A stretch of 64,000 bases of DNA, taken from assembly GCF_964204865.1 (NCBI RefSeq), contig NC_135264.1, forward strand, positions 3,968,001 through 4,032,000, given 5' to 3'. The notes beneath the pieces were generated by a model. That model saw only the letters and a program-made list of their open reading frames with translations. It ran no database searches and had not been told where the DNA came from. Made by a program: the position numbers and the translations under genes. Source of the stretch: Styela clava. Lineage: Eukaryota. Of the stretch, positions 7,241 through 56,399 are shown piece after piece (position 1 is the first letter of the stretch; every line of letters starts with the position of its first letter).

Positions 7241-8505
7241 TCTTGTTTTTCTCAAGTCTGGTTGACAACGTTGACATATTTGTAAACTGAACTTGCAATC
7301 GAGCAAAAATATTTAAGAAAAAGTACAGCAAGCTTTAAACTCTAAGTAAATTATGTTGTTAGTTCACATAATGCCGCTGCTGAATTCTTCTACTTGTGAT
7401 TTATGCACCCACCCCTCAGCTATCTTGTCACATTTGCACATCGTTGCTACGGCAACGCATCGGATATTACGCGATTAATTTATGGTGGTGAGAGTGCTTT
7501 TGATGCTAGTAGTAAAAGGGTACATAATACCACAAAATAATTATACGCAAGTCTCGATGACGACGGTCCATTGGTATTCTCACCAGACCATATTTGAAAA
7601 AATACTACACCCCTTCCCCGCCCTGCCTACCCAAAAATGAACAGTGGCAGTTTACTAACATACTAGAGGATGTATTTAATCTACTTTATTGTATCTATTT
7701 AATGTATCTACTTTTAGCAAATAAACAAAATAAACTCGAGTTCACATACTTCTTGAAATAAAATTTCTACCTCGTAACGATAAGATTCTATTATACGTTG
7801 TTTTTCTGCCCCTGCTAAAACATCTCTTTCTCCAAACCAGTCGTGTCGCTAATGAAAGGATTTTGATTTGCCTGTCCATCATACGAACCCCTGCGGTCCG
7901 AATTACCCCGACCTGCTACATCAGGTTAAATTTGCTATTTATTGAAAAGAGAAAAAGAACATGATATAAATGAAATAATATGGAACGAAATGATATCGAA
8001 AAAAGATTAATAAAACTAATATGCAACAATAAAACAGTAAATTAGTGTTTAATAAATAAGGTAAAATCATAAACGTGATAGTGGATATCGATTGGCAATA
8101 AGTCTCTGGTTTGGGCAGCCATGTGCTGCAAACTGATTACGCATCAACGCGTGATCTATGTATTTCATCAAGAAATATACATGTGAGTTTCTGTTGCTAT
8201 TTCAGATTTAACCTTCGTTAGGTAAACTAGTCAGTGGAGCCGTCTCCCGATGATGTTGGAGTATTGTCTTCAATCCAGCCTTCTGACTTTCCTGCAAAAA
8301 TATAACCGAAAAATGTAACCATAGCGATAAAGTTAAGTGAAGTAGGTTTTTAACTAAATTCGCCCAGAATGATAACCACCAAATATTAACCACAGTTATA
8401 TACTGATGAGAGATGATATATGAATACTTTTCTTTAATGTTGCCAGTTAACTGCTTTACAGAAACAGCTTGATATTTTAAATCAAGAGGATTGTGAAATG
8501 CATAA

Positions 8506-19021
<10,516 letters not shown>

Positions 19022-19974
19022 GTTTATGTGTTATGATTCCTATATGAATGCAGTTTTTAATCGTTTATTTATCAGACAAGTCTACATATTCAATACCTGA
19101 CAATAAATCATATAGAAATATTATACCGAGGAAGTTTGCAATTAAAATTCTCATACTCAGGAAAGTAATTATGCGAACCAATCGACAGGAATAACGAATA
19201 ATGAACGTCTGCAGCAAGATTTCGGAAGACGAATCTCTGACGAATGTTTGAGTGCAAAAGAGGGAAATTTATTGACCTTAATCTATACCGCGCTTTTGCC
19301 ATCAGTGTAAAAGTTATTCACGCAAAATACTAGGTGATGACAAGGGCGACCATCAATGGTTGTATCACCCACTTTTAGGTTTCAAGCAAACGGTGGTCAA
19401 TTCTTGATAACACTGAAATATAAACTTTAAATTCGGAACCATTTCGCATGAGTTATCTGTTTCAATTTTGATATCCTCTCATATTCTGCGAATGATGCAC
19501 AATATAATGTTGTTCATTCAACATCTAACTTCTGTCTATTTTTTATCAGAATGCATGACAGTTCTTGATATATATAAATATATATAGTCAACTGAGTCTA
19601 AGAAAAAGTTTTGTGGTGGCCATACCTGATACAGAGCAATTTCGAACTAGCTGAACAGGCTAAACTGACACCATGAGTGTTGTTAGTTAATCTGTTTCTG
19701 GTGCTATATTCATAACCTCATTTGTCTCCGCTGATTACATATGTGAGATGCCTGTAACTAGAAAGCAACAATATTAAGGCTTAATGCACCCGAGGCAAAA
19801 TAGCAGCAAGATTAACCTTATAATCATTGCAACAAAACGTGACTTGTGTGTCGTTTTCCACATTAAGACAAAATAATGATCGACTGGAAACTGTGGCAAG
19901 ACATTGTTTCTTTTTTTTTCTAATTTAAGCAATTATCTTATTTCAACAGTCTGGATAAATCTAACCCATTACGG

Positions 19975-25749: not shown

Positions 25750-26395
25750 GTTGTCCAGCATACGGCGTTTATGACGCTTATCGTGCCTTAATACTGTCAT
25801 TTACCATGAAACAACTTTGTGTTTCACGCGATTGTACTCACTCATGGAATGACATGATCTCTAGCTGTCGCTATTGAGATTATAATGTGTCCGTCATACC
25901 TTAGCCTTCCTGCGGATATTTGTATATTGGCTGGGCACGAATAATTCTGTGGTTTAATGTATGAAAATTACATGAATGATACTTGGAGACATGTGTGTGC
26001 AGGGAGTAAAAAATCAAATAGTTTGAAAGTCTATGTGCATGGAAGATGAAATGACTGGACGAATAGGGATGTGTCCTTGTGTATGAGAAGATAGCTCATA
26101 TAAATCTAATGCTCAATACAACATGGTTAAATAATGACACATTACAATTCCATGCTATACGGGGAAGATCATTCTCACTGTTCAAGTATCAGAACTGTGT
26201 ATGCTTTTAAAGTAACACTACATATATCTTCCAATCGATTGCCGGCCACTTTAAATTATTGAAGTGCTTTGAGGATAAGATTTTACTCGCTCAATGCCAC
26301 TTATAAAAGTCAAAATCTCAAATTTTCATGCGAAATTACTGAACAATCTCCTCCATTGGGGGATTAAGTCAATTATCGGTTACAGCTGAATGACA
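25750..26395 (+). pseudogene. Possible decayed pentraxin/LamG-like domain fragment
   Basis: 25960-26049 translates IYMNDTWRHVCAGSKKSNSLKVYVHGR*, which resembles the pentraxin-family W.HVC...lkvYvdG strand. It is bounded by stops, and similarity in the flanks is weak. Confidence 0.3.
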
Positions 26396-29250
26396 ACGAA
26401 ACATTAACAGACTAGTTGTTTGGTTGTAATTGTAAATTTACGTGCACATTTTGTTCAGTAAATTTGTTTTCGTAAACCCTGTAACATGAAACGAGGAGAG
26501 AGTTACACACGTGATAAAATTTCACAAAATACAGTCAAGCTATCCAATGATTTGCCAATGAAAATTGACAAAGATTTGTTTAGGGTATTGCAGTTGGAGC
26601 AATTTCTAATCAATAACAAACAAAATAATTATGTTGTCACCATCCTAGTCAGGTTTTAAATAAATTTGCCCTCATAATGTAATTGTGAGATATAATGCCA
26701 AGTTTTAGGACACATTAAAAAAGGTTCTAAATTTTGAAACTTTTGTATTTTTAAAGGGTAGTTTGCTATCTATGTTTGCATATTATGATTCATAAATTAT
26801 TACAAGATAACATACGTTTGACTAATGGCGCGATATTGTAGATTGATCCATCTTACTCAAGCACCTCACAAGAGAAGAATAGTTATATCATTAGTGCCTG
26901 AAATATATATTTTTTTGTTTCTAAATTAACTATATCTCTACACATAGTGACTACTTCTTCAGAGCTTTGTACATAGTGAAAATGAATATTGCCAGTTGAT
27001 AATCGTTAAAAGAATTTCTCAGATTTATGATTTTTCCACTGTTGCGCGTCCTAATGTATCTATCTGCTGGCAGTGCGGCGCTTAGCTGCATCCCAATGAA
27101 AGTATATTTGAAAGTGAGCCAATTAAACCGGTGTTATCGACTTTTAGGATGAAGCCCATTAACACATGAATGACCTGAAATTACGTAACTTGCTTGAATT
27201 CCCACGTGAAGCATTCATTTTACAACTAATCTATCCGTCTTCTAACATGGCCAGCAAGCTATCCGCGGTGAAAAAAATAGTACGGGAATCCCTCAAAATA
27301 AAAAAATAATTTTTCCAAATTTATCTGATCGGATATGGCCTAAAGCAACAACACATTATGAGGACGCAGATTATATTTGACTCATTTTTGGATTGATATT
27401 CTAATATCGTATTTTTCAATTGAGCGTGATTGAACGGGGCAAAAATGTATATATATATATATATATACTGATGTGCCAGGAACAAGATGTGTATCAGTTG
27501 ACAAAACAATATAAGTGATAGATATGGCGGTGTTACGATTCCCGTGGGAGACAATTCCTGCGAAATGAATTATCCCACCCCATTAAAATTGTCTTTATCA
27601 TAAGCCAGAACAAATTGAATATAAACCATTGTGCAACGACGCAAGAGATATTTTATTATTTTACCTAAATTTAAAATTAGTTGCTTATTATCGCTTGGCG
27701 AGTAGTATAGAGTGAAATCCATTATGACCATCCATTATAAGATGAATTGACCTAATAAAATATTAAAGCAAAACTTATTACTTGAGATTTCTGACTGAAT
27801 CAATTCTCAATTGTTACTTACGTTTACAGAAACGAATGTTTTGTGCTGTGATGTCACAAATAACCATCAAAGTTTCGTGAATTATATTAAAAAGATACTC
27901 ATTATTCTACAAATTAGAGACATCTATCGCTAGGGAAGTGATTGTGATGAATTTTGACTGAAAACTAAGATGACTAATAGCTACAAAAAGTTCTATATAT
28001 TAAAAGTAAAAAGCACTTTTCTAGTAATCGTCAAAGCAATACCGTTGTAATCAATAGTCATTTACTTTGTGATAAATATTTATATAAACAGATTACCACC
28101 ATAAAAAAAGGAAACTACATTCATGGCGCTACGTTCATTAATTCGTAATGAGGCCTGCGCCAGCATGTTAATGCTTGAACATGTTGTTCTTGAACTTGTC
28201 GAAACATACGTTAAAATACACAAGAGGATGAAACGGTATTCACATTTGGGTTTGCATTTGTTCCTAGAGTTATTCGCATATCAGAAAAACCCTAAGAATT
28301 AAATTTAATCTCTTGGTCATTATTTTTGTTTAATAAACGCAAATTTCGGGCAATTTTGTGACTAATATCCGGATGTGACCCACAAATTCAATTTGAAAAG
28401 ATAGATCATTTTCTTGCAAATGTACAATCTTCCGAAAATGTAATAACATATGTATGCATTCAAATTCATTTCACATCAACGTATTTTTTTTGACGATTAT
28501 TAAATTTTTAGTTGCGACATTATTTAATCAGATGCGTCCCATATTATGCTTCCTTATTTTTATGAGAAATCCTGAAATTTCTGAAATTTTTCTGAAAAAT
28601 CTATATAAATTTATTTTTTATATATCATATACTCAATTGCTATACTACGTATTAGCTTACGAATAAGTAATATTACTTTATTTGCATGCTCGTTAAATAG
28701 TACTTTATTGAAAAAAAAATCAAATATGTTTGTAGATAATAAATATACCGAATCAGAATGCATAAATTACAATAGAAACATATATGATAGAACAGACCGA
28801 AAACAACGAAAATATTGAAGGCTAAGGACTTTGAATTTTGAGTCACCAAATGGAATGGCCGAACTACTGATACTTCATATATATATCAAAGAATATCAAG
28901 TCTTAAAAATCATATTCTCCGTCATATTTTAAATTTCTTGCTTACAAGCAGTGTTTTTAAATCATAACAACATTTCAATCATGCAGTAACGTTTATATGT
29001 ATAGGTAAAAGCCAAATAGGATTTTCGAATTTTATATCATTATTGATACATTGTTACGTATTTAAGTCTATATGTTTATGGTGTGCGATACATTTGATTT
29101 ACTAACCTCAAATGAATAATAAAAAGTTAATTTTTTTACAAACAATATAGGCAAGTAATGAAATACAATCAAGAGAGAAAATTTCAATATACGTTTTCTT
29201 TGCTAAAAACATCATTTTATTTTGTTGGAAAAATAATGCAAGTTCTCGGG

Positions 29251-30039
29251 TTATATGATATATAAGGGGGCATCGTATTGAATTCCACCGTCTCTTGTTT
29301 GACGATTTAAGCCGGAAATTAGTTCTTGTAGTCGAACTGAATTTTCCGTTGTGTCATCCTTGTATTGATCTAACTTAGTGTTAGGGTTTTCTGGCATTGA
29401 CGGCATCACACGACGAACGAAGGCGTGTGGAGTACGTGGTCCTAAAATGAAAAAGTGCGTGTTAATAATAAATGGTAACTTGTGAACGAGTAGTAAAACA
29501 ATCGTAGTGAATTACGGTGATTACAATATATAAATTATTTACTCGTGATTGCAAGCGCAATAGTGTTTAAATTATCATGCAAAAAGATGCCCTTAGTGGT
29601 GTATAAAACAGAATGTTCTCATAACGGGTCAAAGCATTTGAACACCCAACGCGTAATATCATAGTCCTGGTGCACAAAACTAAGCCAGTTATAAGCACCA
29701 TCAAAATAAAGAAAAAACATCTGCCCATACTCACCACAAACATGTTTCCACATAGCATACGATAGTCTTGAATACAACTCAACACATCTTCTTTGTGACG
29801 CCATATTTCTTTCACGTATATGGTTTTCATATTCTGGAAAGTAGAGAATAATTCATGAAATTAATTATTATTATCACCTTATTTAACTTTCATAAATTAA
29901 GAAATATATATTGTAGCAGAACATTTTCTCATTTTAGATACGTACCTGAAGATGTTAGTCTCGAAGGTGCAGAATAAGCCTTTGCAAAAATGATATACAA
30001 AACACATAAAGTCATTATGCTGTGTACGGCTCGATACAT
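29251..30039 (-). CDS. Secreted prepropeptide-like protein (candidate neuropeptide/hormone precursor), 127 aa
   Basis: Exons 30039-29946, 29833-29735 and 29441-29251, with canonical phase-1 junctions (|gtacgt, |gtgagt; ccag|, ttag|). Protein: MYRAVHSIMTLCVLYIIFAKAYSAPSRLTSSEYENHIRERNMASQRRCVELYSRLSYAMWKHVCGPRTPHAFVRRVMPSMPENPNTKLDQYKDDTTENSVRLQELISGLNRQTRDGGIQYDAPLYII*. It has a signal peptide, two RR sites and an RQTR site. Confidence 0.75.
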
Positions 30040-30194
30040 TTTAATTACTGTTATCTTCAAATAAAATTTTAATTTATACTGTCGTATTTTACCTGTAAAT
30101 AAAATAACAATTTATTTGATTTGATTGATTATTTTTGAAATTCCCTGTACTGTATATTTACAATTGAAACATAAAACTCTCTAATCATATATAC

Positions 30195-30455
30195 AATCAC
30201 ATGGCGAACCACGCCTCTCGTCCTGTTACCAGTCCATAACGGATAAGGGATTAGTTAGCGAGTTAATTTTAATTTCAAATGCATGGACTTGATGGTGGAG
30301 GAAGTCGTAACCGACCAGCGATTCACCTGCGTGAATCATCCTACGACGGCGAGAAGTCCAGCAATCCTCTCACACATAATTATCTCCCACGGGATTCGAA
30401 CCTGCGAACCCACGCGGGTAATTAGCGGTGCTGTGGCGAGCGTTTATGACTCATT
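30195..30455 (-). mobile_element. tRNA-derived SINE (best-preserved copy in the window)
   Basis: The minus strand contains the Pol III B-box GGTTCGAATCCC, followed by a body shared with the copies at 3060-3590 and 6525-7240. Confidence 0.7.
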
Positions 30456-33400
30456 TTGGTGTTTCTTTGGTTAGGTCATTTAAATCGGGGGGTGTTTAAT
30501 CATACAGATCCACACATGACGAGGCTTAAATCCCCTACTGTAAGCTTACATTGCACAGATTGCAAATTCAATCAGGCAATGCTTGAAAACTCAAGCATGA
30601 AATTATAATACGATCGGGTCGTCTTTCCTATGTGAAAAAGTTTTTGAAATAGTATACATAATATTATACAAAAACATCTATTGGGTAATTTTTTTAATTT
30701 AGATATGCTTATTCCTTAATACACTCATATGAAATATGGCTTATATATATCGTCAAAAATGAATATGACTATGAACGAAATATTACTAAACGTATAATCT
30801 CGAAGCTGCAATTTGATTTCTTCTGTTTGTGATTTGATCAGAATCTAAAGCTATTACAATATCGTATGAGATGTGTCATAAATTAATAATGAAGAAGTAT
30901 TCAAAATAAGCGAAATTGATACTTGAAACGAATAGTCATAGTTCATTAAAACAAAACCATAATTTTGACACATGAAACAAATGTATTATCGTTACGTTGG
31001 ACCTGATTATTTACCTATCTCAGTTTTTGGAGGTATTTATTCTTAACGTTAACAGACTAATCTTTCTACTCTAATAACGATTTTATATTTAGAATCAGGT
31101 ATTTGTATATATAATTCAAATTTATCCGGAACAGTTTACACAAACACTGTTAGAAACCCCTCAACTATTGCCTGTCCAACTTTCTAATTGTATCGCTGAC
31201 CAACTCAACAGAAAATAAGCAATGCGCTTTTTTTCGCAAGGCACATTTGTCAGTAAGTCAGGATTTTTTTTATCTTGACTAAGAGTGAATGTATAATGTC
31301 CTAAACTTTAAACTAATTTTCGCGTTTCATCAAAAATGTTGTAAATGTTTTAAATAACTCTTTGGTGACATGAACAGATGGCTTGAGTAAACAATTTTTT
31401 TTGTAATTAAAAAGTGAAAAAACTTAGTTTAAAGTTTAAACCATAATACAAATAACTGTTAGTTACTTAAATATATCCAGAAACGTATGCCTGATAGTGC
31501 GTTAGTATCTGCGCCGTGAATAATTATCGTCGTATGGTCATGGTATTTTTATTACAGAATACGTCTGCTTTAAATATTTCAACTCGGATGAAGTCAAATC
31601 CAGCAGGATCGTTGCAGCAGATTTTTTTGTTCCATAATTCGACATGTTCTCGAGGGATTGCATTACAGCTATTTTAATGCTACGAATGTCTCAACCGAAC
31701 ATGATATGCTATGCTCGCGTGATCAAAAAGTTTTAAGTAACGGCCTTTTACTATATATATTAAATACGTATGCGTTCGTTTCAAATATCACAATATTTCT
31801 TCCAATATACGGTTGTGAGTATAAAGTTTTTACGATTGTTTAAGAAAATCTAGAGATTATTATCATTTTTTATTTAAGATCGATAAATTAATCGATCTAA
31901 AAAACATCAATCGAAATCGAATAATTCTTAAATGCGTTTCACATCACCTTCAGCATGATCAGAATATCATACAGTGAAGACATAAATAACAACAAGGACA
32001 CATGCTGTAAAACTCGTGTTCCGAATATGTTGAAACAACCATGGCAACCCGACCAGGGCAACCCGATCCGGATTACAGAGAACCCGAGCGCTCTTGTTCA
32101 AAAAATGTCTGCATACTTTATCGCAAAAGTTTTTATGAATCACAAAAGCAATTCTTACACATTTCATCCTACTTATACCATAATTCAACTCACTATATCT
32201 TGCTATCTATGCAGAAAATACCTTGAAATGTTCGTTACCGGAAAGCATTGTTGGAGCTTGTAGAAGTTTCGGTATCATGGCTAGAAAAATACAATAACAG
32301 TCTGGATTTCAAACTACTTTTTTTAACATTTTCTTATTTATTCTAATCATTTGTTCGAAACATTTAACGACTTGCCATCTTTTAAATATAGTACTGAATA
32401 ATACTATTGAAGACATAGGAGCTATTCTTGTAACCGCTAAATCTTAAGACGAACTGATACAAGATCTTCTGGTACGTGTGAAAATCCGAGTTTCCGTTTT
32501 TTATATCTTTTATTTTCCCTGTAAATCCATATCATGCTTAGCATCACATCCGTTTTCACGGCATATTCATTCACAATACCGCAATCTAGATCAGTCTATG
32601 ATTTTGATAAGATAGAAGTCGACAAGGAAATTTATGAATTATTTAGTTGACTTTATTGCTGCGATAATAAAACTTTTGACACATTTGGAGATACATAAAT
32701 CATGAAACAGATTTAATCTATCGAGTCGATCTACAATTTGAAGATCCAAGTTTCCAGAAATAAATGTGTAGTTAAAGTATGCATATTTTATCAGTAATAT
32801 ATAATATATAAGAATCATTTTTTTCTATAACAATATTCCGTAAATTTTATAATTTTATTCCAATTTGAATTGGACAGAAATTGGACGTACAAGAAAGAAA
32901 ACAAATTTGTGGACCTATTATTCTAGTGCTGATGAGTTTTAATTTATACAATGTTGAATTATTTCCCACTTTGACAAAACTGAAATTTTTCTTCGGGATT
33001 TTTTCAATATTATTTTATAACAGTACAAACTTTGTTTCTTTGATCAAAAAGGTGCCGTGAACAAATTTAGTAATGTAACGTCTAGCGTAAATGAGGTACA
33101 GTATCCTGCTATGCTCGCCTGCCTTCAGTGCTTCAAGGCACAATTCATCCACCGAATTACCTGTCTGCTATATATATTTCCATTTTTGGGTTAAGAAAAA
33201 ATTACCAAGGAAATAAAACAAAAATAAAATATAACTTACAATATCAACATAACTAAATATGAAACTACATTCTATATTGAACCTACAAGAACGCTAATAA
33301 TTTTGATTTCACAACTCCAAAATGTGTTTGTTCTATTCTGATAATGTAATAGAGACTCATTTGAATCTCCTAGCTGTTGACAGTCTTTTATATCCAAACC

Positions 33401-36400
33401 TGACCTGCAAAAAATACAAACTTTTTCGCATTTTGTCCACTGAATACAGATTTTAGATGACGTCAACAGCGACTTCGCCTTTGAGACTTTATGACGCCCT
33501 CTGCGGTGCCATGCATCCATTTCTTCCGTTCGAACATATAGGCACCAAACGATTATCGAATACTTAAAAGCACCGGCGGAGGAAACATCAATAAATAAAC
33601 AGAGCGTTGTTAGCGATAAACTATAAAAATAACTTTCGTAACAAGATAGCAAAATAAAAATATCCATCTAATGTTTATAAATCAAAGATGATAAAAGTTT
33701 ACTAATTATGCAACAATAAAACTTGGAATATTTATGATCAATTTTTGTTGCAACTTTACGTCAGTATGTGGTTTTTCTTGTGAAAAGCATTTATTGATTG
33801 CATGGGAATGAATATCGTTTACTGTATTCATATACGCTTTGGCATAAATGAGTTATCAACATAATAAAAACTTCGATATATAGATTTTTTAAATGGACTT
33901 TTGGAAAGGTTATATTGTACTCATTGTTTATGAAAGCACCTTCATTTCCCACTATGTTTAGGTCATGCAATTAGATGGTGTTATCCATATTACATTAAAA
34001 AGGAGTGTCATCTCATTTCAGAAAATATATTTATATTATTAAACCATTAGAATTGGTTTTGACTTGATGAAAATATTTTATTCATTTTTGGATAGTATAA
34101 GATCATATTATTATATTAACTATGTGGTGCGCTCTGATTTGAGATGTAATAAATTAATTTAGGTGCATTAAAATCGAAACATTGTTAAATTTACGTGCAA
34201 CGCAGAGATCGTAAAATGAATTATTACCAAAGCATTTAATTTTTGGTCAAAATGGCAGAAGTCCATAGGGACAGTTGTCGATAGCACTTGGCAAAAATTA
34301 GTCGCCGACCATTCGAAATGATTTCCGTTTCTCCTAAATCCACTCTAAAATCATTAATCGCATCTATTCTTGGTTTCGGAGAATCAACCTTTCAAAATTT
34401 GTGAATCACGAATATTCGATTCTACGATCAATATTACTGTCGCGTTAACAAGTTTTTCCATGGTAAATTACAATGGGCGAACGATTACAATATAAGCATT
34501 TCAAAGTCTTTGTTGTCCCTGGTCTTCTAATTAAAGATTGTTGGAAATTTTTTATATTTTATAAATAGGAATATTTACATTTCATTCTATCTTATCACAC
34601 GTCAGACTTTCATTTCATGTACATCTCTGTATTCATGAGATGAAAAGCGTTTTTTCGTGTCTTAGTTATTTTACTTATGGAAACACATATGACACTATAA
34701 AGTAAAACTATGACAATAAATTTTGGCTGTGGAACTATATGGCCAAATTGAATAATTATATCCAGTCCTGGAAAATCATTAATAAAAAAAATGTGAAAAA
34801 GATATACGTTTTTGTATGGAAGAAAACTATCGATACGCGAAACTGTTTATATATATAGGATGGCACATAAACCACTTATTGCATTTAATTAGATAAGATG
34901 TTATTTGGCGTTATAGGAGGAAGTTGGTAATTGATGCAAATTTACAAATCTACTTTTATGCAAATCTACAGATCGTATGGTAATTTTGAATTAATTTGTG
35001 TTTGTGACTCTGATCAGAGAATACCGTCATGGAAGTGTATTTTATTAATGAACAATTGCGTGTTTATAATATGTGTGGTCCCCGAGAATTGTCCCCTACC
35101 TGTTAGTTAGCTTCTGCAACATTTTAATACAATTTTGCCAGAACAGGAAGGTATTATTGAATATAATAAGATTTATTCACAGCGTCCTGCGTCCAAGGGC
35201 TGGTTATATAAAACATAAAACACAAATTTTCCTCAGGAATTCGAATTGTGGACCTTATTGTTGTGGTTTCTCGTGGAAACAAGATCGTGTAATTCAATTC
35301 ATATTGCGTACATAATCACATTCGCGCGTCTTTTTTCAATATCAATGTGCAGTCTCCATTCGTAACAGAAATACATGAAAACTGCTTTGCATTTAGAAAT
35401 AACTGCCATTAAAATAATGGACATTTATGTGGCTGTGGATCTTATGAGTAATAATGAAAAATCCCTTATGACTGATTTTCAAAGCAATGAAATCTAACTT
35501 TACAAACCTTTCATTGTCTGGCTGCTGTCCAGTGACGTTCGCCCTGCTAAAGGTTTCCAATGCCACAAAACAGAAGTCAATATCTCATTTGGGCCTCTGT
35601 GTAAGTTTTACTTTATGCAAATTATCATGATGAGAATAATAATTTTTTTTAGTGCTTGATCTTTTGTGTGGCCTACGTAAAAATGCTGTAGGACAAGATA
35701 AATTTACAGATAAACTATATATACTATAAACTATATCTTGAAGAAAGATTTTACAACTTTTAGAAGTAGATTCTTTAAGGTACGTTACAAATAACACACC
35801 GCGCCACCATAGATGTACTGTGTTTATTTTGAACCAGAACTGCTTTTACGGTAAATGTCAAGTTTACTGTAAATTTGTCTTAACATGTAAAATGTTCTTA
35901 ATGTGACCAAAAAATTTTGAACCTTTCACAGTTATTAGGCAACAACTAGAATCGACCTTTCTGATGACGCAAATTGCATACTTACAAAGCGAAAATTGAT
36001 CTATTTTCTGTTTCTCATTAAGAGCGGAATTCAGACTAAATTGTAACTCTCTGACTCATTAATTTGATTCATTAAATAGACTAATTGAGCGTGACAATTT
36101 TATTAGATTTGAAATTTGTAGTGTTTTTTCATACGGAACAACGTACTATGGAAGGCAATTCGTCAACATCCTTTGGTATTTGTTACTCAGTTATGTTAGG
36201 AGAATGACAGTATTTAAATCATAAATTGTAATGAATTTCTTATATACGTGTGATTCACAGCAAGTAAAATAAATATTTTCCCGTAACTTAACGTCAAATG
36301 AAACCTTTTTTGTTATTATGCATCGTTATTATTGAACTGTTACAGTGTTTTAGAATATACCATATGTTTTATATATACAATAATCAAACGACTGAAAATG

Positions 36401-39432: not shown

Positions 39433-40909
39433 GATAAAAAAATTAACTGCGGGACTATTTTGAGAGTTCAGTCATATGTTATGGCAGATTGTTGCTGTCA
39501 TTCAAGCAAACGAAATCCGTCTTTATCCTGTATAACATCCGTCTTTATACCACTATAATATTATGTTTACGCAGTCCTATTTTGTATTGTAGGAGTACTT
39601 TTTTACAGTTTTTATTCATTCAACCTGCTGAAAATAAAATAGTAAGTATCTGAAACATAAGACTTTTACTGAATTGCATTCCGGTGCAAAAATGATAATT
39701 GGGTATTCTGGCAATTCTGACAAAAAAAAAACATACACTAATGTTTTATCACAAACATTAACTTGTTATTTCGTACTCATGCAAAACAAAAGCAACCATT
39801 TCGGATTGAAATTTTTGTTCTGTTTATTTAAAACAGAGCAATTTAATACAGTTCATTTCATCAATATGGCTTTAAATTCACTCAATAATCAAATTTGAAT
39901 TTTGCAGTATCAATTTACATAATCGTATGACGTCAATGGGTATATGTGGAGAACTCATTTAAGTCATCGCTGTCATACGTTGACCGTCTTCTTCATCTAG
40001 TTTCTTGTCACTAACCATATAAATAATGATATCATGTTATAGCGGGTTTATGCAACCGAATTCATATGAAATTTCGTCATATGTTAATATGATATATACA
40101 ACTTTTTTGAAGTTAGGCAAAAAATATCACTAACAAACATACCAACAGTAATCCTATAAAACATGTACATCAATATTGTTAGCTTCGTCGATATAACTAG
40201 GTGAGGCGGAAGAATTTTAGGGCACATGTTGGAAGATGCCTCTCTAGCACCAATTGAAGGTTATTTCAAAATTGGCCATAGTCTTTAGGGGCAAGATATC
40301 GATCATGCTATACATGAAATATGTTTGTTCAAAATGTTACGAATACAAATCTCAAATATATAGACAAATAGTATTCCCGAACACATTTTCTAACAGCGCT
40401 AAGATATATAGCATTTTGCATGTAACATGTCAATAAATATATATATATATATCCAATTGAGAGAACGATACCATTTTACAGCTAATTTGCATATACACAT
40501 TACTAAAAGTAATTAACTTCAGAAAAAATTGGTATATAGTGATATAACAATGAATTCTATGATGTTCAAATTGTAACATCTATGTAGTTACCACCCATAA
40601 ATAAATGTAATGATAACAATAACTTTACAATGAATATGTTGTACATAAGCTATTCTTGAAAAATCTCCTCAGGTGCGGTACAAAAAGTAAATTGCACCCA
40701 ATATTGTCTGCCAGTAACAATATGAAATTCAATACTCCTTTCTGGTAAGAAATGAGCACCCTGCATAAATTAAAGTACCAAAATACGTGCTTAAAACGTC
40801 TCCCCAAATCGCTATTTTGTCTGGTATTAATTTTTAGGGTACATGTATATATTGTGATATTTCCCTCGTCATTTTCGTAGTGCGAGGTCGTCATACAGTA
40901 AGCTGCTGT

Positions 40910-41428
40910 TCATTTCTTAGTTTTTCTGAACCATGAACTCGATCGTTTGGAACTGGTACTTTTTGTGAGAGCTAATTCATCATCGATAGTTGCATAGATT
41001 GGTTCTTTTTTAATCCTTTGTTCTTCTAATTTTCCCCAAGTTTCGGTGCCGGTAGTACACATTTTTACATAACTTCCAGTATGATTCATACTGATATTGG
41101 AACTTGTAGTTTTTGAAATTGGATTCATGAAGTGTTCAATCATTAGATTATTACATTCAGTCGATTTTGTGATAATATCTTCCTTTCTGATTTCAGTTTT
41201 TATATAGTCGGTTGACAATCTATTTAAATCGATTGTTCTGAATAACAGAGGTAGTGCTTCCGATCTTGTAGCCTTGAAGTCATTGTAATTTACCCAGATT
41301 CGAATCGCCTCCCATTTTATTTCTTCTGATGGAAATACAGAATCATGTGTTTTAATGTAAATTAGTATGTCTTTTTCAGAAAAAATTTTGAAACCTTCAG
41401 TGTTGAAAAATCGAACGAAGTCTGCCAT
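40910..41428 (-). CDS. BACK-domain-only protein A1 with Tyr-motif tail (YVKM, EPIYATIDD), 172 aa
   Basis: Uninterrupted ORF. The BACK pattern is visible: EGFKIFS...VFPSEEIKWEAIRIWVNY...LPLLFRTIDLNRLS...ECNNLM. No BTB domain or Kelch repeats in the ORF. Confidence 0.75.
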   Translation of the reverse strand: MADFVRFFNTEGFKIFSEKDILIYIKTHDSVFPSEEIKWEAIRIWVNYNDFKATRSEALPLLFRTIDLNRLSTDYIKTEIRKEDIITKSTECNNLMIEHFMNPISKTTSSNISMNHTGSYVKMCTTGTETWGKLEEQRIKKEPIYATIDDELALTKSTSSKRSSSWFRKTKK

Positions 41429-42175
41429 AGGATTAGTTATATCTTTATCTGTTCAATAATATTAAATGACTAAATAAAAATAAATCAAGTTATTGAATTT
41501 TTTTAATTGAAATTCAAAATTCAAGGTCAAGGGAACTTTCTTCGCAAATACATAGAACTTATTGTCCGTTCATGCAAACTTTCGCATAATTAATCAATTG
41601 TTGATTCTAACGATTTTACAATTTGTAATAAATATAAATCAGAATTTTAACAAATTCAAATTTGACAAATAAAATATTTTAAATTAATCATCGAGAACTG
41701 CTGAACAGATTCATATGCATTATTTAGCACGATTGTAAATTTTGTCGAATATTGGCAAATACTCCAGCGTAATTGTTAAATGCTTGATTATATACTATAT
41801 ATTGGAACATACACTGAGATGTTGCCCTAAAAAAATGGCGTAATCGATGTTGCAAAACCAAGTAAAATAACTCCGTTTATAATATATTCATTCAGATCAA
41901 TCTTTATTATATACAATGAACGTTTTGGAGGAGACATTTTGTAACTGGAAAGAAATCTTTTTTCCATCAGAATTTGATATATTATTGAATAACAAGACAA
42001 ATTATTAGGCAATTGTTTCATAAATCATTCTCTAACATTCGAATTATTACTTGATTAAATAAATTTATGTTTTTTTTATCGAGGTGTCCCAGCAATAAAT
42101 ATGTCATTAAAACATTTTTTGAAATTCGATCATTCAAACAAATGCAACCAATAGAGTTAAATTTTATAAAAATGT

Positions 42176-42628
42176 TTAATTCTTGTCCTTGTTGCGTAGG
42201 CTTGTACGCGCTTCAATTTTAGGGTGACCATTCACGCCGTCGATATCCTCATAAATCCGATCATTACTTTTGCCGTCTTTTGATTTCGCCATTGTATTAG
42301 ATGGAGACATTGGCACATACTGTGAATCCATAACGTGATCAAGTAGCAAATTTGAACATTCAACTGATGTTTTAACCATTATGTCAGATCTGATAGTAAT
42401 TAGGGATTCTCTTGATAATTGACTCAAGTCAATCATTTTGAATAGCGTTGGCAATGTTTCTGACTTATTACTTTTTTGACTTTCGTGGTTGATCCATATT
42501 TGAATGGCCTTCCATCTGATTTCTTCTGATGGAAATACAGCATCGTGTGTTTGAAAATATACCTGGATGTCTTTCTCTGATAAGTTTTTATAACCTTCAG
42601 TATCGAAAAAGTCATTCAAATTCGCCAT
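42176..42628 (-). CDS. BACK-domain-only protein B1 with Tyr-motif tail (YVPM, IYEDID), 150 aa from the ATG
   Basis: Paralog of A1, roughly half identical over the first ~100 aa. Its ATG at 42628 aligns with the A1 start (MANLNDFF / MADFVRFF). The ORF-track start at 42634 is a TTG. Confidence 0.75.
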   Translation of the reverse strand: MANLNDFFDTEGYKNLSEKDIQVYFQTHDAVFPSEEIRWKAIQIWINHESQKSNKSETLPTLFKMIDLSQLSRESLITIRSDIMVKTSVECSNLLLDHVMDSQYVPMSPSNTMAKSKDGKSNDRIYEDIDGVNGHPKIEARTSLRNKDKN

Positions 42629-43002
42629 GATCAAAAAGTTATGAAGCTTTATTTCTGAAGGGAGAAAACTAAACGCAAATTGAAAGACAAATTTTTTTTT
42701 TATAGCAGTTTAGTAGAAGTAGCAATCATGCATGACATTATCAATAAATAGTGTGTGTGGTCATGGGTTGAAATTAAACATGAATTAGCATCACAAATAC
42801 TGAATTTATAAAGTGTTTACATTCAATCATGATTAGTTTACGTTATTTAAATTAGACGCAGTTTAAATCCATGATAGTTCAATTACATACAAAGCTTCCT
42901 TATTTGAAGAATTATGCTTCGTAATAAGCCCTGGCAAATCTTTGAGAGCACTTTTAAGAGCAATCTTAGAAACAATACGAACGAATTTTCAAACATAAAT
43001 TG

Positions 43003-43164
43003 ATTGACTTGGCAATATTTGTACATCACCTTAATGGCTGTACTTGTATATTGATTTGGATATATATACATATGACTTGGCAGTATATGTATATTTGGTT
43101 GACTGTATATGTACCGGTATATGAGTTGGCGGTATATGCATATTCTTGGCAGTATAAGTATGGC
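43003..43164. repeat. Degenerate ~22-bp minisatellite (second copy at ~52764-52925)
   Basis: Recurring tatgacttggcagtatatgta-like units. Confidence 0.55.
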
Positions 43165-43694
43165 TAGGGTTACCATATTTATGCTCCATATATTACCACT
43201 TCAGAGTGCGACGTCTGTAAAGACAACGACCCTTTAGCTGTGATTTTGTAACTTTACATTTTCTGATTTTAATATATAGGCCTATATTCAAAGCTACCCC
43301 GGCTGTCTTCATTGACCATATTGTCATCGAGAATTCATGCGCATATACGCTGTCCAAATCTCGGGTTCAGTTCGAAAAATAGAAATGAATTGACGTTAAC
43401 GATACAGGTACAAATAATTCGTATTTAGACTAGTTAGTATTGGTTTTACATGCAATACGTTTTCCAACAATGTTAGCGGGAAACAAGGAAACCAACGCCT
43501 TCACCTTCAGTAAGTAGGCTAGCGCTGCGCTACAAAGAAACAACAGTAACAAAAACATGTTCGTGTTCTGTATTATGCTGGATAGCTGAACGCCAAAGCG
43601 GGACGGCGGGACAAGACGCTGAAAAGCGGGACGGCGGGACAAGACGCTGAAAAGCGGGACTGTCCCGCCTAAAGCGGGACGTATGATAAACTTA
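43165..43694. mobile_element. hAT-type MITE (duplicate at 52926-53427)
   Basis: Left TIR tagggttaccata, decayed right TIR tatgataaactta, a 7/8-matching TSD agtatggc/tgtatggc, and subterminal gcgggac repeats. Confidence 0.65.
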
Positions 43695-44911
43695 TGTATG
43701 GCACGTTACCAATCCTATCGCCTGTGCTTAGTTTGTGAAAACAAATGACGAAACATCAACCAATTTGCTAATTGACCAATAGGAAAGAATTCGCCTTTGC
43801 AATAATTTTATTGCGCATTCATTTTATGCACAATCTTCATTATTTATATTCTAGTATTACATGTTTCGGATAAATTTATACTTTCCACCGTTTCGTCTAA
43901 ATGTACTTTTAACTACGACATCATATGCCATTCTTGGTATACTGTTGTTTACGTTTGGACATCTTTCTTCTAACTTGATGACAATACGCATTTAAATATT
44001 ACAATACAAATATAGTTATCTAGAATTTGGAAACATTTTATTTCTTGCAAAATCTCACTTTGTTAACTTTGACTTTGTTATTCTTGAACATTATAAGACC
44101 TTTTCATCAAGCACAAGTTTCCGCAATGTTACTGGCTGCTCTTCAACTAAAATTGATTACAACTCTTCAGTAATTATACAGCTGATTGCTCAACTGGTTT
44201 ATTTGTTAAGTCGCGAATATTTTCTTATCAATTGTTGACTTTTATCCGGATTTACTTTTGGGCAAATATCTATCGTATATGTATCGCGCTATCGATGAAG
44301 ATGTTTGACAATATCAAACTGTTTCTTTTTTGTAATGAATATCATCCCCATGCGTTAATAATTACACTTAATGTCTAATTACACTACGCGTTGCAATATG
44401 CTATATGCCAGTGAAGGATTACAAAGTGTCTCCATTAATGTTGAGCTCTGAAACTCGACTACCAGCTGACTGTGTAAAAACACGATTTGCTTGTTATGTG
44501 CCTGAAAGATACATGCGTATCGAGACCCTCTATTAGAGAGCGGTATTAATGTTATAGATATATACTGGCAGTTATAAACAATACAAAATATGCAACTCGA
44601 TGACTATCAAAACTTCAGCATCTAAAACAGCGCGGCATCATGTACGAGCACTGCGTAAAAAGGTCATATGTGATGTCATACAACATAGGTTGTAAGCACA
44701 ATTAAACAATATGCTTCATATGGAAGTTTCCCTGAGCATCGACTTTCTTCTTTGCCTCAGTAACAATTGCTAATCAGCAAGATGCAAAAAGTGAGGGAAC
44801 AATAAACGTTTCAGCAGCCAGAAACTTCTGTTACTTAGGCAGAATTTTAAATGTGGTTTTAAATATTACCTCGTTTTCGTGTTTTTGCGTTAGTTTTTTT
44901 AATCTTATGAA

Positions 44912-47900
44912 TAGGGATGTAAGTTTCGAATATTTTTTTTTTCGAATCGAATACCGAATATTTTTTTTTCGAATCGAATATTTCCGAATCGATTCTGATT
45001 AATACAACATCACTTTTTCTTTGACTTTATTCAACACACACAAGGTTATTTTTCAGTAAACACGCATATTAATACATGCACGCATAATAATGTTCAATTG
45101 AGGTGAACAATAAACTAGCAATCATTCACTGCTGCATCAAACTTCGGTTGCAGTGCAAGAAGTTTAACTCATTTACGTGTGTACCACTGAGTCTGGTTCT
45201 TAATCTGGAAACTGTCAAACCAGCAGAAGAGAAGGCTCTCTCCGCTGGTGCTGACGTACACGGTATAGCCAAGTACCGATTGGCCATTTTGTGTAGGGAT
45301 GGAGAATCAGTTTTTCGGGCATGCCACCACAATAATGGGTTTAACCGCTCTGTATTTCTGTCCAATTTCTCTTTCAAGTACTGTGAAATTTCCTCCGACA
45401 CTTTAGATGCATATCCTTCCGATTCAGACGAGCTTGACTGTTCAATCCCTATCGAAAAGAGTCCTTGGAGAGAATTTTGTTCCACCTCTGGAGCAGTAAC
45501 CGCAGAAGGTTCAACGTGTATTTCATCTTGTATTTCTGGCATTGAAGCTTCAGTGGCTTCCATTTCTAGAGAAACTCTGACCTTGAAACACAAAAAATAT
45601 TATATGGGTTTGTACAAGTCTATAAATGATATGAAAGGGATAATGTTAGTTGAACCACTTGTATAACTCACACAATGAACAACAGAATCCAGAATACTAC
45701 CAACACATGTAAAAGAAAAAATCACAGTTGCAAATTAGGAACATCACAGCCTATGCGTTTGAAAGAGTAATTTTGACCTGACTTCACAAATTTAAGAAAT
45801 ACAATGGTATACCAGATTTTAAGTGAATATTACCTGGACTCTGAAAGAACGATCAAAAAATTTCCCTTTATGACAAGGATGGAGCCATGTTGCTTTTTGG
45901 AACAAGTTGACCTCTTCTTGACTGGGTGTTTCCAGTATAGAACGAAATCGAAGTTTGAGAGAATTTATGAGAGTGTTGCAAAATTCATTCGTAATAGCTG
46001 ATAGTGTCCCACCCTCATTTCTCTTTTCCTCACAATGGCCCAACAGCCCTTTTGTGAGAGGAATCAAAGAGGAAACTGTTACATAGTCACCTTCAAGATG
46101 GTCAGAGGCAGCCTGTCAAAATATGAAACAAATAATTTTATTGCATACATATATGTGCTAACAAATATCAAGAGATATGCAAAGTAATTTACACTACCTT
46201 GAAGGGTTCTAAAATCTCTGCTAGCACTGTAAGCATATTCCATGTTGTTTCACCTAATTCCAGGTGACTTGCTGCTGTTCTAGGAGTAATTGTTGGGTCA
46301 CATAATACAGATCGAATAGTCCATTGATGAGAGATCAAATTTTTTATCATAACATAAGTGGAATTCCATCTTGTAGATACGTCGATTGGCATTTCTATTG
46401 AAGGAGATGTGCCATCCTGAGCATGTCGATGTCTTAAAGTTGTCATAGCTTTCGTTGATCGGCGAAAGTACTGCACCAAATGACGAGCTCCAGCTGCAAA
46501 AACGAAGAAATTATTGCACTTAACAATACAAATGCTTACAATGAAATAATAACCTATGCAGATTAAAAAATATGCATTTTTTCTCTCATAAATTAGGTTT
46601 TTACAAAGACAAGTAATTTTAGTTAATAAACCTTTTCAACATAAATTAAAATCACCTAATGCATGAGATATTTCTTCAATTTTTAAGCCATCTTTGATGC
46701 AGAGCTGAATCGTATGTGCAGCGCATCTAATATGGTACCAACCATATTCTTCGTAAAGTGAACGACAAGCTGACACCACATTTGCTCCATTATCTGTTGT
46801 CACTGAGAGCACCTTTGTCGGGCTGATATCAAACTCACTCAATGATTTTAAAATTTCTGATTTTATATTTTCTGCCGTTTGAGCCTCATCCATCTGTTCT
46901 GTTGTCAATACATACTTGAGTAATTGACCATCGCTCGGATCTACGAAATGGGCAGTGACAGTTATATATGCTTGCATTCTTGCACTGGTCCACATGTCTG
47001 TTGTAAGTGAGACAGATTTTTCTTTTATGGCCCCTAGTATGTTAATAAGCTTTTCTTTACATTCTTTATACCTCCTTTCAATATGTTTAGTTACAGTGTT
47101 ACGCCCGGGTAATACATAGCCTGGCTGTAAGTGATGTATCAGTGAACGAAAATGCTGTCCCTCAACAAGGTTTATTGGCCGGAGGTCTCCAACAATAACT
47201 TCAGTTATCAATCTATCTATTGTCTCACACTGACCCTTAGTTATTGGCTTTAAATAGGCAGTCAAGCTGCTTTGCTGAACTGAAGAAGTTCTGGAATTAA
47301 AAGAACAACAGGTTAACCTCATCTCAAGACTGCAAGAGGACTTGTTGAATAAAGTCCACTATCCAGACTATCTGACTACAGGACTATGTTTCACCAAAAA
47401 CTACAGACAGGCAGAACTACTGACAGACTGAACTAACAGAAATTCATAGCATGTAGCGGCTTAAGCGGACGAAAATTAGAAAACAAAAAGATAAATATAC
47501 GGGTGTACAGGATAAATATGTTAATCCTATCCTAAGCTATTGACTTACCCAGCATGAACAATGTTTCGGGGAGCAAAGGTGTCCTCACATGTAGGCCTAT
47601 CCTTCACGTCCTTAGGCCGGATATGGCTTGAAATGCCAGTTGAGGCGGTCACAAACGTATGCTTCCTCCGTAAATGGTTTAGCAAGTTTCCGGTAGTGTT
47701 TTGATACACAAATTTTTCCTTGCAAACAGAGCACAAGGTGTAAAATGTGCCATTTTCCTCCAGCGGCGTACAGAAATAATTCCACACAACAGACGTCGGC
47801 CGCCTACCCTGTTTTCTGATACCGGGTTTCGACTTCTTATTGATGTTTTGCATCTATCAGTTTATGAAATACACGTTTGAAACATACGATGGCATTACAA

Positions 47901-48210: not shown

Positions 48211-48899
48211 CTTATGAATCATAATGATGGTTTAAAACATAAAAATAGTTGATAGGCTCTAACTCGCGAAACCGCTCTTAATATAAACACCAAAAATTTT
48301 GAAATGATATATTATGGGAAGAATTTTCCTGGGGTCAAAGGTCGGAGAAACATCCATTGACGGATACGTTACGGCTACGCGGTTGTCCTAGCTCCATAGG
48401 TCTGTGACGATGGCGATTCTTTCATATACACCCAGTCTAAAGGTGAATCAAAATACCAGTACTGTTAAAGCTATTTGAATGTTGGAATCTTACAAATTAT
48501 CCCCAATTTGATTAAAATCATGGATACAAGTTTATTTTCCAATTTTCTAAGAATGAGTTTCATAAGTAACACATTACACAATTCAAGTGTGCGGAAATAT
48601 GTTATTGTTTCAGCGATTATCAACTCATTTGAGATATTCTACGTCGTTAAAAAACTCCCGAATTCGCAAAGCATAAAATCGCGAGTGCGATCGTAGAACA
48701 GCCACACGATGCACAGTTTTTAATTTTGATGACGTCAGCACACAAATCTTTAAAGTAAAAAACGAACCCACAGAAGTAATGGACTTATAGTGACAATAAC
48801 ACCCTTCAACTACCAAACAATTGAAAGCAATTGGCGATTTATTCGAGGTTCATTAATAAAGACTATCTGCGAGGCAGACTTCAATTTGTTGAAGTTGAC

Positions 48900-49720
48900 A
48901 CTAATCGTTCCCAATTTTTTCGAATCGAAACTGGAGTAATTCAAGGATCCTGCCCTGGTCCATTATTATTCATATTTCATTTATAAACGACATCTACATT
49001 CCTCTGATTTTATGAAAAAATTATTTGCTGATGGTGACACTGGTCTTCTCAGCAGTTCCAAATCTTCAACGGACCTCCAAAACATGTTAGTCTAGAAATA
49101 AAAATCGCAACTACAACAAAACACCCCTGAAAATCAAAATCAATGGAATGAAGATTGAGGTGTATCTTCATATAAATATCTAGGATTAAACATAGATTGT
49201 CGTTTAAAGTGGGGAGTACACATCAATGAAACGCTCAGTAGGCATTTCGAGCAAACTTTAACATTACTCAGAAAGAAACACTCTGAGATAGTCTATTATT
49301 TTTACTTTAAAGCCTATGTCCAATATGTAGTTGTTGCTTGGGGATCGGCCTCCAAGTAGAAACATAATCCCTTATAGGCCTACTGCTCATGTTAACATGA
49401 ATATCATGTACTGCATAACTGGTCTCCTCAAATATACCGATATTTATCAGCTGGGAATTTGTAAATTGATGCAACAATTCCCTAATAACTATTTCGCCAA
49501 GCAAATCAGTGTTCACGATTATAACACCAGATCAGCATCACTATCATCATTCCACGTACCCCGTCAGACTTAATCTAATACTCAAAATTCATTTAAATAT
49601 AATAGTGTTACCATGTGGAAACTTGTCGGCTTACTTCGAATGTTTGTAACAACTTGACTGGGAATGATTTCTGTTGGCACCGCATGGCGAAAACGAATGA
49701 AAAAACCATCTTAATGAGTA
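48900..49720 (+). pseudogene. Degenerate non-LTR retrotransposon (CR1/L2-like) reverse-transcriptase 3' fragment
   Basis: Frameshifted motifs TGVIQGSCPGPLLF, IND, KLFADGDT, YKYLGLNIDCRLKWGVHI, VAWGSAS and HDYNTRS. Confidence 0.75.
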
Positions 49721-49974
49721 CTGACCTAGTAAATATTTTATAATTGCGATAATCGATTATTACATTACAAATTTGGGCCACTAACTTTCTCATTTTCATA
49801 TTACTTGTCTCCTTATATATACTCGTATATACAAGCCAACCCAACGATGTGATGTTAATGCAATTATGGACGTACCCAATAGATAACGAACAGGCGTAAA
49901 CAGGGTTCGTCTGATTCAGTATATTTTTTATTCTTAATTTCACTCGAATCTCAAACATGTGCAATATAGTCCTT

Positions 49975-50285
49975 TTCTCAGTGCTACCGTTACCTTCTAT
50001 TTTACTTTTTGAACTCCTTCCGCCTCATATGTTCATTTTCCAGACTCATTTCACCCAATTTTCTTATTTCCTGCCCTCATTCATTGCATTTAAATTTATT
50101 TCACAGACTCATTCTACCATCTGCATTCAAATTCCAGGTTTCTTCCAACTCGTATGTATATTTACTTTACAGACTCCGTTCATCGTATGTATTTTTTACT
50201 AGACTGCTCCCGCCTCATTAGTTTATTTTTGACTCTTCCCACCTCTGATATTTACTTTGCAAACTAATTCAACCACAGATATTTA
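49975..50285. repeat. Degenerate ~33-bp minisatellite, truncated at the duplication junction
   Basis: Units resembling tttactttccagactccttccacctcata. Confidence 0.65.
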
Positions 50286-50670
50286 TAAATTGGTATATAG
50301 TGATATAACAATGAATTCTATGATGTTCAAATTGTAACATCTATGTAGTTACCACCCATAAATAAATGTAATGATAACAATAACTTTACAATGATTATGT
50401 TGTACATAAGCTATTCTTGAAAAATCTCCTCAGGTGCGGTACAAAAAGTAAATTGCACCCAATATTGTCTGCCAGTAACAATATGAAATTCAATACTCCT
50501 TTCTGGTAAGAAATGAGCACCCTGCATAAATTAAAGTACCAAAATACGTGCTTAAAACGTCTCCCCAAATCGCTATTTTGTCTGGTATTAATTTTTAGGG
50601 TACATGTATATATTGTGATATTTCCCTCGTCATTTTCGTAGTGCGAGGTCGTCATACAGTAAGCTGCTGT

Positions 50671-51189
50671 TCATTTCTTAGTTTTTCTGAACCATGAACT
50701 CGATCGTTTGGAACTGGTACTTTTTGTGAAAGCTAATTCATCATCGATAGTTGCATAGATTGGTTCTTTTTTAATCCTTTGTTCTTCTAATTTTCCCCAA
50801 GTTTCGGTGCCGGTAGTACACATTTTTACATAACTTCCAGTATGATTCATACTGATATTGGAACTTGTAGTTTTTGAAATTGGATTCATGAAGTGTTCAA
50901 TCATTAGATTATTACATTCAGTCGATTTTGTGATAATATCTTCCTTTCTGATTTCAGTTTTTATATAGTCGGTTGACAATCTATTTAAATCGATTGTTCT
51001 GAATAACAGAGGTAGTGCTTCCGATCTTGTAGCCTTGAAGTCATTGTAATTTACCCAGATTCGAATCGCCTCCCATTTTATTTCTTCTGATGGAAATACA
51101 GAATCATGTGTTTTAATGTAAATTAGTATGTCTTTTTCAGAAAAAATTTTGAAACCTTCAGTGTTGAAAAATCGAACGAAGTCTGCCAT
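50671..51189 (-). CDS. BACK-domain-only protein A2, 172 aa
   Basis: Identical to A1 except L to F in ELALT/ELAFT, just after EPIYATIDD. Confidence 0.75.
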   Translation of the reverse strand: MADFVRFFNTEGFKIFSEKDILIYIKTHDSVFPSEEIKWEAIRIWVNYNDFKATRSEALPLLFRTIDLNRLSTDYIKTEIRKEDIITKSTECNNLMIEHFMNPISKTTSSNISMNHTGSYVKMCTTGTETWGKLEEQRIKKEPIYATIDDELAFTKSTSSKRSSSWFRKTKK

Positions 51190-51936
51190 AGGATTAGTTA
51201 TATCTTTATCTGTTCAATAATATTAAATGACTAAATAAAAATAAATCAAGTTATTGAATTTTTTTAATTGAAATTCAAAATTCAAGGTCAAGGGAACTTT
51301 CTTCGCAAATACATAGAACTTATTGTCCGTTCATGCAAACTTTCGCATAATTAATCAATTGTTGATTCTAACGATTTTACAATTTGTAATAAATATAAAT
51401 CAGAATTTTAACAAATTCAAATTTGACAAATAAAATATTTTAAATTAATCATCGAGAACTGCTGAACAGATTCATATGCATTATTTAGCACGATTGTAAA
51501 TTTTGTCGAATATTGGCAAATACTCCAGCGTAATTGTTAAATGCTTGATTATATACTATATATTGGAACATACACTGAGATGTTGCCCTAAAAAAATGGC
51601 GTAATCGATGTTGCAAAACCAAGTAAAATAACTCCGTTTATAATATATTCATTCAGATCAATCTTTATTATATACAATGAACGTTTTGGAGGAGACATTT
51701 TGTAACTGGAAAGAAATCTTTTTTCCATCAGAATTTGATATATTATTGAATAACAAGACAAATTATTAGGCAATTGTTTCATAAATCATTCTCTAACATT
51801 CGAATTATTACTTGATTAAATAAATTTATGTTTTTTTTATCGAGGTGTCCCAGCAATAAATATGTCATTAAAACATTTTTTGAAATTCGATCATTCAAAC
51901 AAATGCAACCAATAGAGTTAAATTTTATAAAAATGT

Positions 51937-52389
51937 TTAATTCTTGTCCTTGTTGCGTAGGCTTGTACGCGCTTCAATTTTAGGGTGACCATTCACGCCG
52001 TCGATATCCTCATAAATCCGATCATTACTTTTGCCGTCTTTTGATTTCGCCATTGTATTAGATGGAGACATTGGCACATACTGTGAATCCATAACGTGAT
52101 CAAGTAGCAAATTTGAACATTCAACTGATGTTTTAACCATTATGTCAGATCTGATAGTAATTAGGGATTCTCTTGATAATTGACTCAAGTCAATCATTTT
52201 GAATAGCGTTGGCAATGTTTCTGACTTATTACTTTTTTGACTTTCGTGGTTGATCCATATTTGAATGGCCTTCCATCTGATTTCTTCTGATGGAAATACA
52301 GCATCGTGTGTTTGAAAATATACCTGGATGTCTTTCTCTGATAAGTTTTTATAACCTTCAGTATCGAAAAAGTCATTCAAATTCGCCAT
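51937..52389 (-). CDS. BACK-domain-only protein B2, 150 aa
   Basis: Protein identical to B1. Confidence 0.75.
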   Translation of the reverse strand: MANLNDFFDTEGYKNLSEKDIQVYFQTHDAVFPSEEIRWKAIQIWINHESQKSNKSETLPTLFKMIDLSQLSRESLITIRSDIMVKTSVECSNLLLDHVMDSQYVPMSPSNTMAKSKDGKSNDRIYEDIDGVNGHPKIEARTSLRNKDKN

Positions 52390-56146: not shown

Positions 56147-56399
56147 CTGACCTAGTAAATATTTTATAATTGCGATAATCGATTATTACATTACAAATTT
56201 GGGCCACTAACTTTCTCATTTTCATATTACTTGTCTCCTTATATATACTCGTATATACAAGCCAACCCAACGATGTGATGTTAATGCAATTATGGACGTA
56301 CCCAATAGATAACGAACAGGCGTAAACAGGGTTCGTCTGATTCAGTATATTTTTTATTCTTAATTTCACTCGAATCTCAAACATGTGCAATATAGTCCT

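Follow-up and report, generated by a model that had tools for sequence, protein, structure and literature searches.

A candidate lineage-restricted peptide precursor gene without detectable homologue in the ascidian Styela clava

Peptide systems to which the gene described here can be compared include neurotensin and neuromedin N, in which basic residues precede a C-terminal Pro-Tyr-Ile-Leu, and the ascidian antimicrobial precursors (clavanin, styelin and halocidin), in which a signal peptide is followed by a helical cationic segment and an acidic C-terminal region. Clavanins and styelins are described in PMC10817596 as helical peptides of Styela haemocytes, and halocidin as disulfide-linked. 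The Ciona-specific peptides have hydrophobic ends (PSIL, PSII, GLF, YFV or YFL) with no amide listed in Table S1 of PMC8936170, and that paper reports validated GPCRs for CiLF, CiYFV1, CiYFV3 and CiNTLP2. Precursors of CiLF, CiNTLP-B and CiYFV/L each yield related copies from a single chain (excerpts of PMC12441681). In the three human natriuretic peptides the first Cys is followed by Phe at +1 and by Arg at +7, and orthologues of their receptors extend beyond vertebrates, with ligands that are mostly unknown (passages of PMC6878697). The apelin-receptor ligand ELABELA (ELA, or Toddler) is encoded by three exons and carries R42-R43 directly before Cys44 (PMC6315173, in part), and it needs its C-terminal Phe/Pro (extracts of PMC5363837, PMC13197934 and PMC6731456).

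The gene lies on the minus strand of a 64,000-nt stretch of the Styela clava genome (NC_135264.1, positions 3,968,001 to 4,032,000; hereafter the window). Three coding exons, at 30039-29946 (94 nt, aa 1-31, with the ATG at 30039), 29833-29735 (99 nt, aa 32-64) and 29441-29251 (191 nt, aa 65-127), join into a protein of 127 aa plus stop, and are separated by two GT-AG, phase 1 introns of 112 nt (29834-29945, 22% GC) and 293 nt (29442-29734). Exons have a GC content of 34-42%, versus 22-25% in intron 1 and the UTR. At every residue the product matches RefSeq XP_039257399.2 (LOC120334023), named 'uncharacterized', and an earlier version of that RefSeq protein differs solely at residue 16, inside the signal stretch. 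The exons, intron borders, frame and RefSeq identity together confirm the three-exon, 127-aa structure of the original prediction, which was mistaken in calling the gene unannotated: because its product is identical to the RefSeq model, the gene is annotated, yet unnamed and without function. It is single-copy in the Styela clava genome, where no paralogous or intronless copy was seen. An AT-rich 3′ UTR of about 700 nt (28540-29250) follows the stop and extends to a cluster of polyadenylation-like signals (AATAAA at 28709, 28682 and 28615; ATTAAA at 28528). On the other side, 53 nt upstream of the ATG, the sequence alone offers an acceptor-like pyrimidine tract with AG (30092-30115), which might serve an intron in the 5′ UTR or trans-splicing.

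Twelve sequencing runs without tissue labels were considered, none recorded as RNA and eight presumed to be RNA; contigs of four (X1, X3, X5 and X10) were compared with positions 26000-36000 of the window. Intron 2 is skipped exactly in contigs of two of the four, X1 and X3, both from one study, which also cover exon 2 and the coding part of exon 3. In one X1 contig, exon 2 is followed by 16 letters that are unique in the 10-kb stretch and lie at the end of exon 1, and this single contig supports the removal of intron 1. A check of both introns against transcripts had been called for, and transcript-like contigs thus bear out intron 2 in two runs and intron 1 in one contig. Run X5, from a different study, contributed one 211-nt contig within exon 3, and X10 gave repeat pieces only, among the matches listed; three further runs of the X10 study contained none of the query words, a blank that carries no evidential weight. 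The contigs leave most bins flanking the gene empty. At high depth, contigs extend to 28536 in X1 and to 28554 in X3, although contigs cannot mark the true transcript end. No contig among those listed joins exon 2 to intron 2. The GEYGQMFF frame that read-through at the 29734 donor would enter, which the original prediction had set against its own model, sits in a dispersed repeat of about 100 bp (29610-29719) found at 39 other places (85-96% identical) among 40 scored matches of 114 candidates. All 11 differences in an X3 contig fall in 697 UTR bases, with none in 283 coding bases, a bias (p about 0.02-0.04, or 0.13 once clustered changes are merged) that gives a weak sign of constraint on the coding region.

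The conceptual protein is laid out as a secreted precursor. Its single hydrophobic stretch spans aa 4-20, with a hydropathy peak of 2.45 at aa 7-17, and the remainder is hydrophilic; small residues at -3/-1 fit a signal cut after Ser23. Judged by hydropathy and the -3/-1 rule, a predicted signal peptide (aa 1-23, 29971-30039) without a membrane anchor is present, as in prohormones, and the pro-segment begins after it within exon 1 (29946-30039) and continues in exon 2, which also holds the first RR site and Cys48 to Cys64. Cysteines occur at position 12, in the signal stretch, and at 48 (codon 29784-29786) and 64 (29736-29738), the latter two being the only mature Cys, in a C-x15-C spacing. 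RR46-47 (29787-29792) and RR74-75 (29410-29415, behind the tail of the Cys peptide at the start of exon 3) enclose the 26-residue segment aa 48-73 that holds both. An acidic spacer (pI 4.3) then leads to RQTR111-114 (29293-29304), a 13-mer (aa 115-127, 29254-29292) with the C-terminus ...PLYII and the stop (29251-29253). The three convertase-type sites thus flank short segments, again as in a prohormone, and the layout originally described, from signal peptide to PLYII end, is present in the sequence. The 26-mer has a charge of about +1.9, a pI of 8.9, no amidation Gly and a C-terminal Phe-Val, and is partly amphipathic (moment up to 0.5-0.6), while the 13-mer is acidic (net charge -2.2) and ends in Tyr-Ile-Ile. 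The calculated masses are 1436.72 Da (monoisotopic) for the 13-mer and 3049.49 Da for the reduced 26-mer, which would lose about 2 Da on closing a ring. Among 200,000 shuffles of aa 24-127, 2.0% had the Cys pair between dibasic sites, 8.5% had a basic site that would free a short C-terminal peptide, and 0.24% combined the two features, frequencies to be read with the caveat that the criteria were chosen after the sequence was known.

No relative of the protein was detectable among 5.8 billion proteins. Each of three word-index searches found the protein and nothing else (1 of 9, 1 of 4 and 1 of 1 candidates). When 1.84 billion representative proteins were searched exhaustively, the one match was again the protein itself, and none of the protein searches produced a sequence match to any Ciona protein. 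Nothing in Pfam exceeded its cut-off, and the only entry, DUF7952, came from one allele with an E of 0.19; the PDB sequence search gave no match, an ALKAL profile had none at the locus, and a Foldseek fold search, with a query model of pLDDT 50, returned none at E<=0.001. For the whole protein the ESM Atlas listed ten nearest feature clusters with scores of 0.86-0.89, of which eight represent precursors of neuropeptides or hormones from many different families, and for the part aa 38-76 scores were at most 0.83. Because all scores are below 0.9 and the families disagree, this likeness is a lead that names no family. Neither LOC120334023 / XP_039257399.2 nor its peptide is mentioned in the literature searched, a set that does not extend to the key Ciona surveys. 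Hamada et al. reportedly described a 'natriuretic-like' brain peptide in Ciona in 2011; an ortholog could be that peptide or appear among those that Kawada et al. listed in 2011.

Of the two families hinted at for this gene, neurotensin was suggested by the C-terminal end. Like neurotensin, the 13-mer has 13 residues directly behind a basic site and ends in Tyr-Ile-aliphatic. In contrast to neurotensin, it is net acidic, has no Pro directly before Tyr and has no basic residues in its last six, so that its A-P-L-Y-I-I end departs from the neurotensin C-terminus. The Pfam family Pro-NT_NN (PF07421) did not match the protein, and with neither Pro-Tyr nor basic residues at the end the hint is left unsupported; a genome search with the same profile gave no signal anywhere, controls included, and is uninformative. 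The nearer likeness is to CiNTLP1-6, CiYFV1-3/CiYFL1 and CiLF1-8, which are likewise short ascidian peptides, hydrophobic at the C-terminus and listed without an amide, and the acidic start of the 13-mer recurs in CiYFV3 and CiYFL1 (both as tabulated in PMC8936170). Its Tyr-Ile-Ile may be compared with the Y-F-V/L and P-x-I-I/L of Ciona, and the 26-mer ends in Phe-Val. Unlike the Ciona precursors, the Styela protein has a single copy of each peptide, no repeats and a two-Cys peptide alongside, and its one Y-I-I and one A-F-V ending do not reproduce a shared Y-F-V/L or P-x-I/V-L/I/V ending. A pattern search for tandem YFV/L precursors yielded 81 matches versus 92 in the control and is uninformative. 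The 13-mer resembles the Ciona NTLP, LF and YFV/L peptides in style, not in consensus.

Such comparisons agree best with a precursor of neuropeptides or hormones that is restricted to an ascidian lineage and recalls in style the Ciona NTLP/LF/YFV peptides with their free hydrophobic C-termini, which convertases do not obviously share in sequence; convertases would cut it into two peptides, and on balance this is probably what the gene encodes. The best reading of the evidence is favoured by the spliced single-copy gene, by a layout found in 0.24% of shuffles under post hoc criteria and by the ESM Atlas lead. Of the original proposal of a novel neuropeptide precursor yielding two peptides, the secreted precursor with convertase-type sites therefore stands as the best reading, while the families at which it hinted are unsupported. 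Several features count against the precursor reading, namely the lack of a detectable homologue, a modelled helix over RR46-47 that does not favour a Cys48-Cys64 ring, Atlas scores below 0.9 from families that disagree, and the lack of motif repeats, unlike CiLF, CiNTLP-B and CiYFV/L. The helix comes from single-sequence AlphaFold2 models, made without an alignment, in which the whole protein has low confidence (pLDDT 50) with a helix at aa 30-64, and residues 33-64 form one continuous helix (pLDDT 96.7) that carries both Cys48 and Cys64. RR46-47 lies inside it, and the helix may hinder cleavage there. Because two cysteines in one straight helix cannot bond, the disulfide ring claimed at the outset is a possibility and not a result; Cys48 and Cys64 may close a ring or may link chains.

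The same model suits a different view, in which the product undergoes little processing and acts as a small secreted protein of the matrix or tunic or in a paracrine role, with Cys serving inter-chain links and the basic sites being incidental. This view is unlikely, even though a predicted helix with RR within it and Cys 16 residues apart, and the lack of any peptide family match, are what it would lead one to expect. Three basic sites placed jointly as here are rare in shuffles (post hoc criteria), the ESM Atlas features lean to prohormones, and single-sequence AlphaFold2 tends to favour helices. Rather less plausible is a host-defence peptide precursor of ascidian type, with a signal, a cationic helical peptide and an anionic tail. 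The predicted signal peptide, the cationic, partly amphipathic aa 48-73, modelled as helical, and the acidic C-terminal region do follow the layout of clavanin, styelin and halocidin precursors. Styela haemocytes make helical peptides of this kind, the clavanins and styelins, and halocidin is disulfide-linked (PMC10817596, as above). Unlike the genes for those peptides, the present one is single-copy, weakly charged in its product and without an amidation site; coding differences between samples are few, and the separate short C-terminal peptide behind RQTR is left unexplained.

Two further readings attach the Cys peptide to vertebrate hormone families, and both have little to commend them. 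Residues 45-57 resemble the start of ELA-11, with R-R-C-x-x-L-x-S-R common to both. Together with R46-R47-C48, which parallels R42-R43-C44, and with the three exons of both genes (PMC6315173, in part), this would make the Cys peptide a distant relative of vertebrate ELABELA, a very improbable identification. It is just as doubtful that one ascidian precursor encodes both a neurotensin-like 13-mer and, in the Cys peptide, the first relative of ELABELA-type (apelin-receptor family) ligands from an invertebrate; if true, this would trace a signal of vertebrate heart development to the common ancestor of tunicates and vertebrates. The Styela protein has 127 aa versus 54 aa, a different Cys pairing with no upstream mature Cys equivalent to ELA Cys39, and a chain that runs 79 residues past Cys48; ELA ends 10 residues after its Cys, whereas the Styela peptide continues for 25, and the C-terminal Phe/Pro of ELA has no counterpart. 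The Pfam Toddler profile (PF22050) did not match the protein, the locus was not among six weak matches of 18 candidates in a genome search, and the genome holds 114 instances of an ELA-like motif versus 159 of the reversed control, which is chance frequency. The least credible of these accounts has a 17-residue Cys ring that would bind a membrane guanylyl cyclase in natriuretic fashion. Two Cys enclosing 15 residues, with a putative bond, do recall ANP, BNP and CNP, and receptor orthologues outside vertebrates whose ligands are mostly unknown leave room for one (PMC6878697, in part). In contrast to the natriuretic peptides, the Styela segment has Val49 at +1 and Leu55 at +7, with Arg at +6, has no Gly in the ring and is N-terminal in its precursor instead of C-terminal. 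The Pfam ANP profile (PF00212) matched neither the protein nor an exon, the locus was not among three weak matches of seven candidates genome-wide, and, because no Frizzled or LDLa domain was matched among 22 frames scanned, the adjacent serine protease is not corin-like and offers no corin link. With Phe+1, Arg+7 and a profile match all absent, the natriuretic hint is likewise unsupported.

Returning to the preferred reading, the 127-aa precursor would enter the secretory pathway and lose its signal peptide (aa 1-23), and prohormone convertases would cut it at RR46-47, RR74-75 and RQTR111-114 in secretory granules. Cleavage would release a weakly cationic two-Cys 26-mer (aa 48-73) and a linear acidic 13-mer (aa 115-127) with a free carboxyl. 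At least the 13-mer would most likely be a ligand whose hydrophobic C-terminus engages an ascidian class A GPCR, in the manner of the Ciona NTLP, LF and YFV/L peptides. Alongside what was observed directly (gene structure, intron 2 splicing, RefSeq identity, single copy, no detectable homologue), the verdict is that of a real, unnamed, lineage-restricted peptide precursor of no assignable family, which remains a candidate without homologue. The Ciona-specific peptide table given in PMC8936170 has no precursor that combines a two-Cys peptide with an unrelated linear one, and the gene offers two concrete candidate ligands that could be sought by peptidomics and matched to orphan receptors of Styela.

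Several other features of the window were recorded. The dispersed repeat at 30280-30480, which lies 240 nt upstream of the start codon and is abundant in all four runs compared, has a minus-strand string resembling a B box and looks like a tRNA-derived SINE; no tRNA was found in the window and Rfam gave no match in 27000-32000. Ten kb downstream of the gene, on the minus strand at 8200-19030, lies a type II membrane serine protease gene with a long N-terminal region, a membrane stretch near 18100-18200 and a trypsin domain. Two separate activation-motif-like starts, in frames 15131-15367 and 14211-14423, are possibly alternative or duplicated exons, and the domain content (trypsin, without Frizzled or LDLa) rules out corin. 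NPF-rich frames on the plus strand at 1734-4166, without a Pfam match, recall an endocytic protein of AGFG/ArfGAP type in its C-terminal part. Recent segmental duplications pair 40526-44912 with 50287-54645 (99.2%) and 48211-50285 with 54637-56711 (99.8%); the duplicated segments carry BACK-domain frames, and a hAT transposon lies between copies at about 45100-47850. The minus strand at 57480-63430 holds a ZIP zinc transporter gene with an EF-hand ectodomain match. Elsewhere in the genome, a CNP-like string at C2:14929914 (stretch 1501-1550, E 0.65) that ends in Cys followed by a stop proved to be an off-frame piece of a decayed sequence resembling a transposase, of which C13 carries a 77% copy, and was set aside as chance. 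Also on C2, at about 14926000 (stretch positions 2065-2980), are exons of a homeobox gene that, judging from their sequence, is of NK type.
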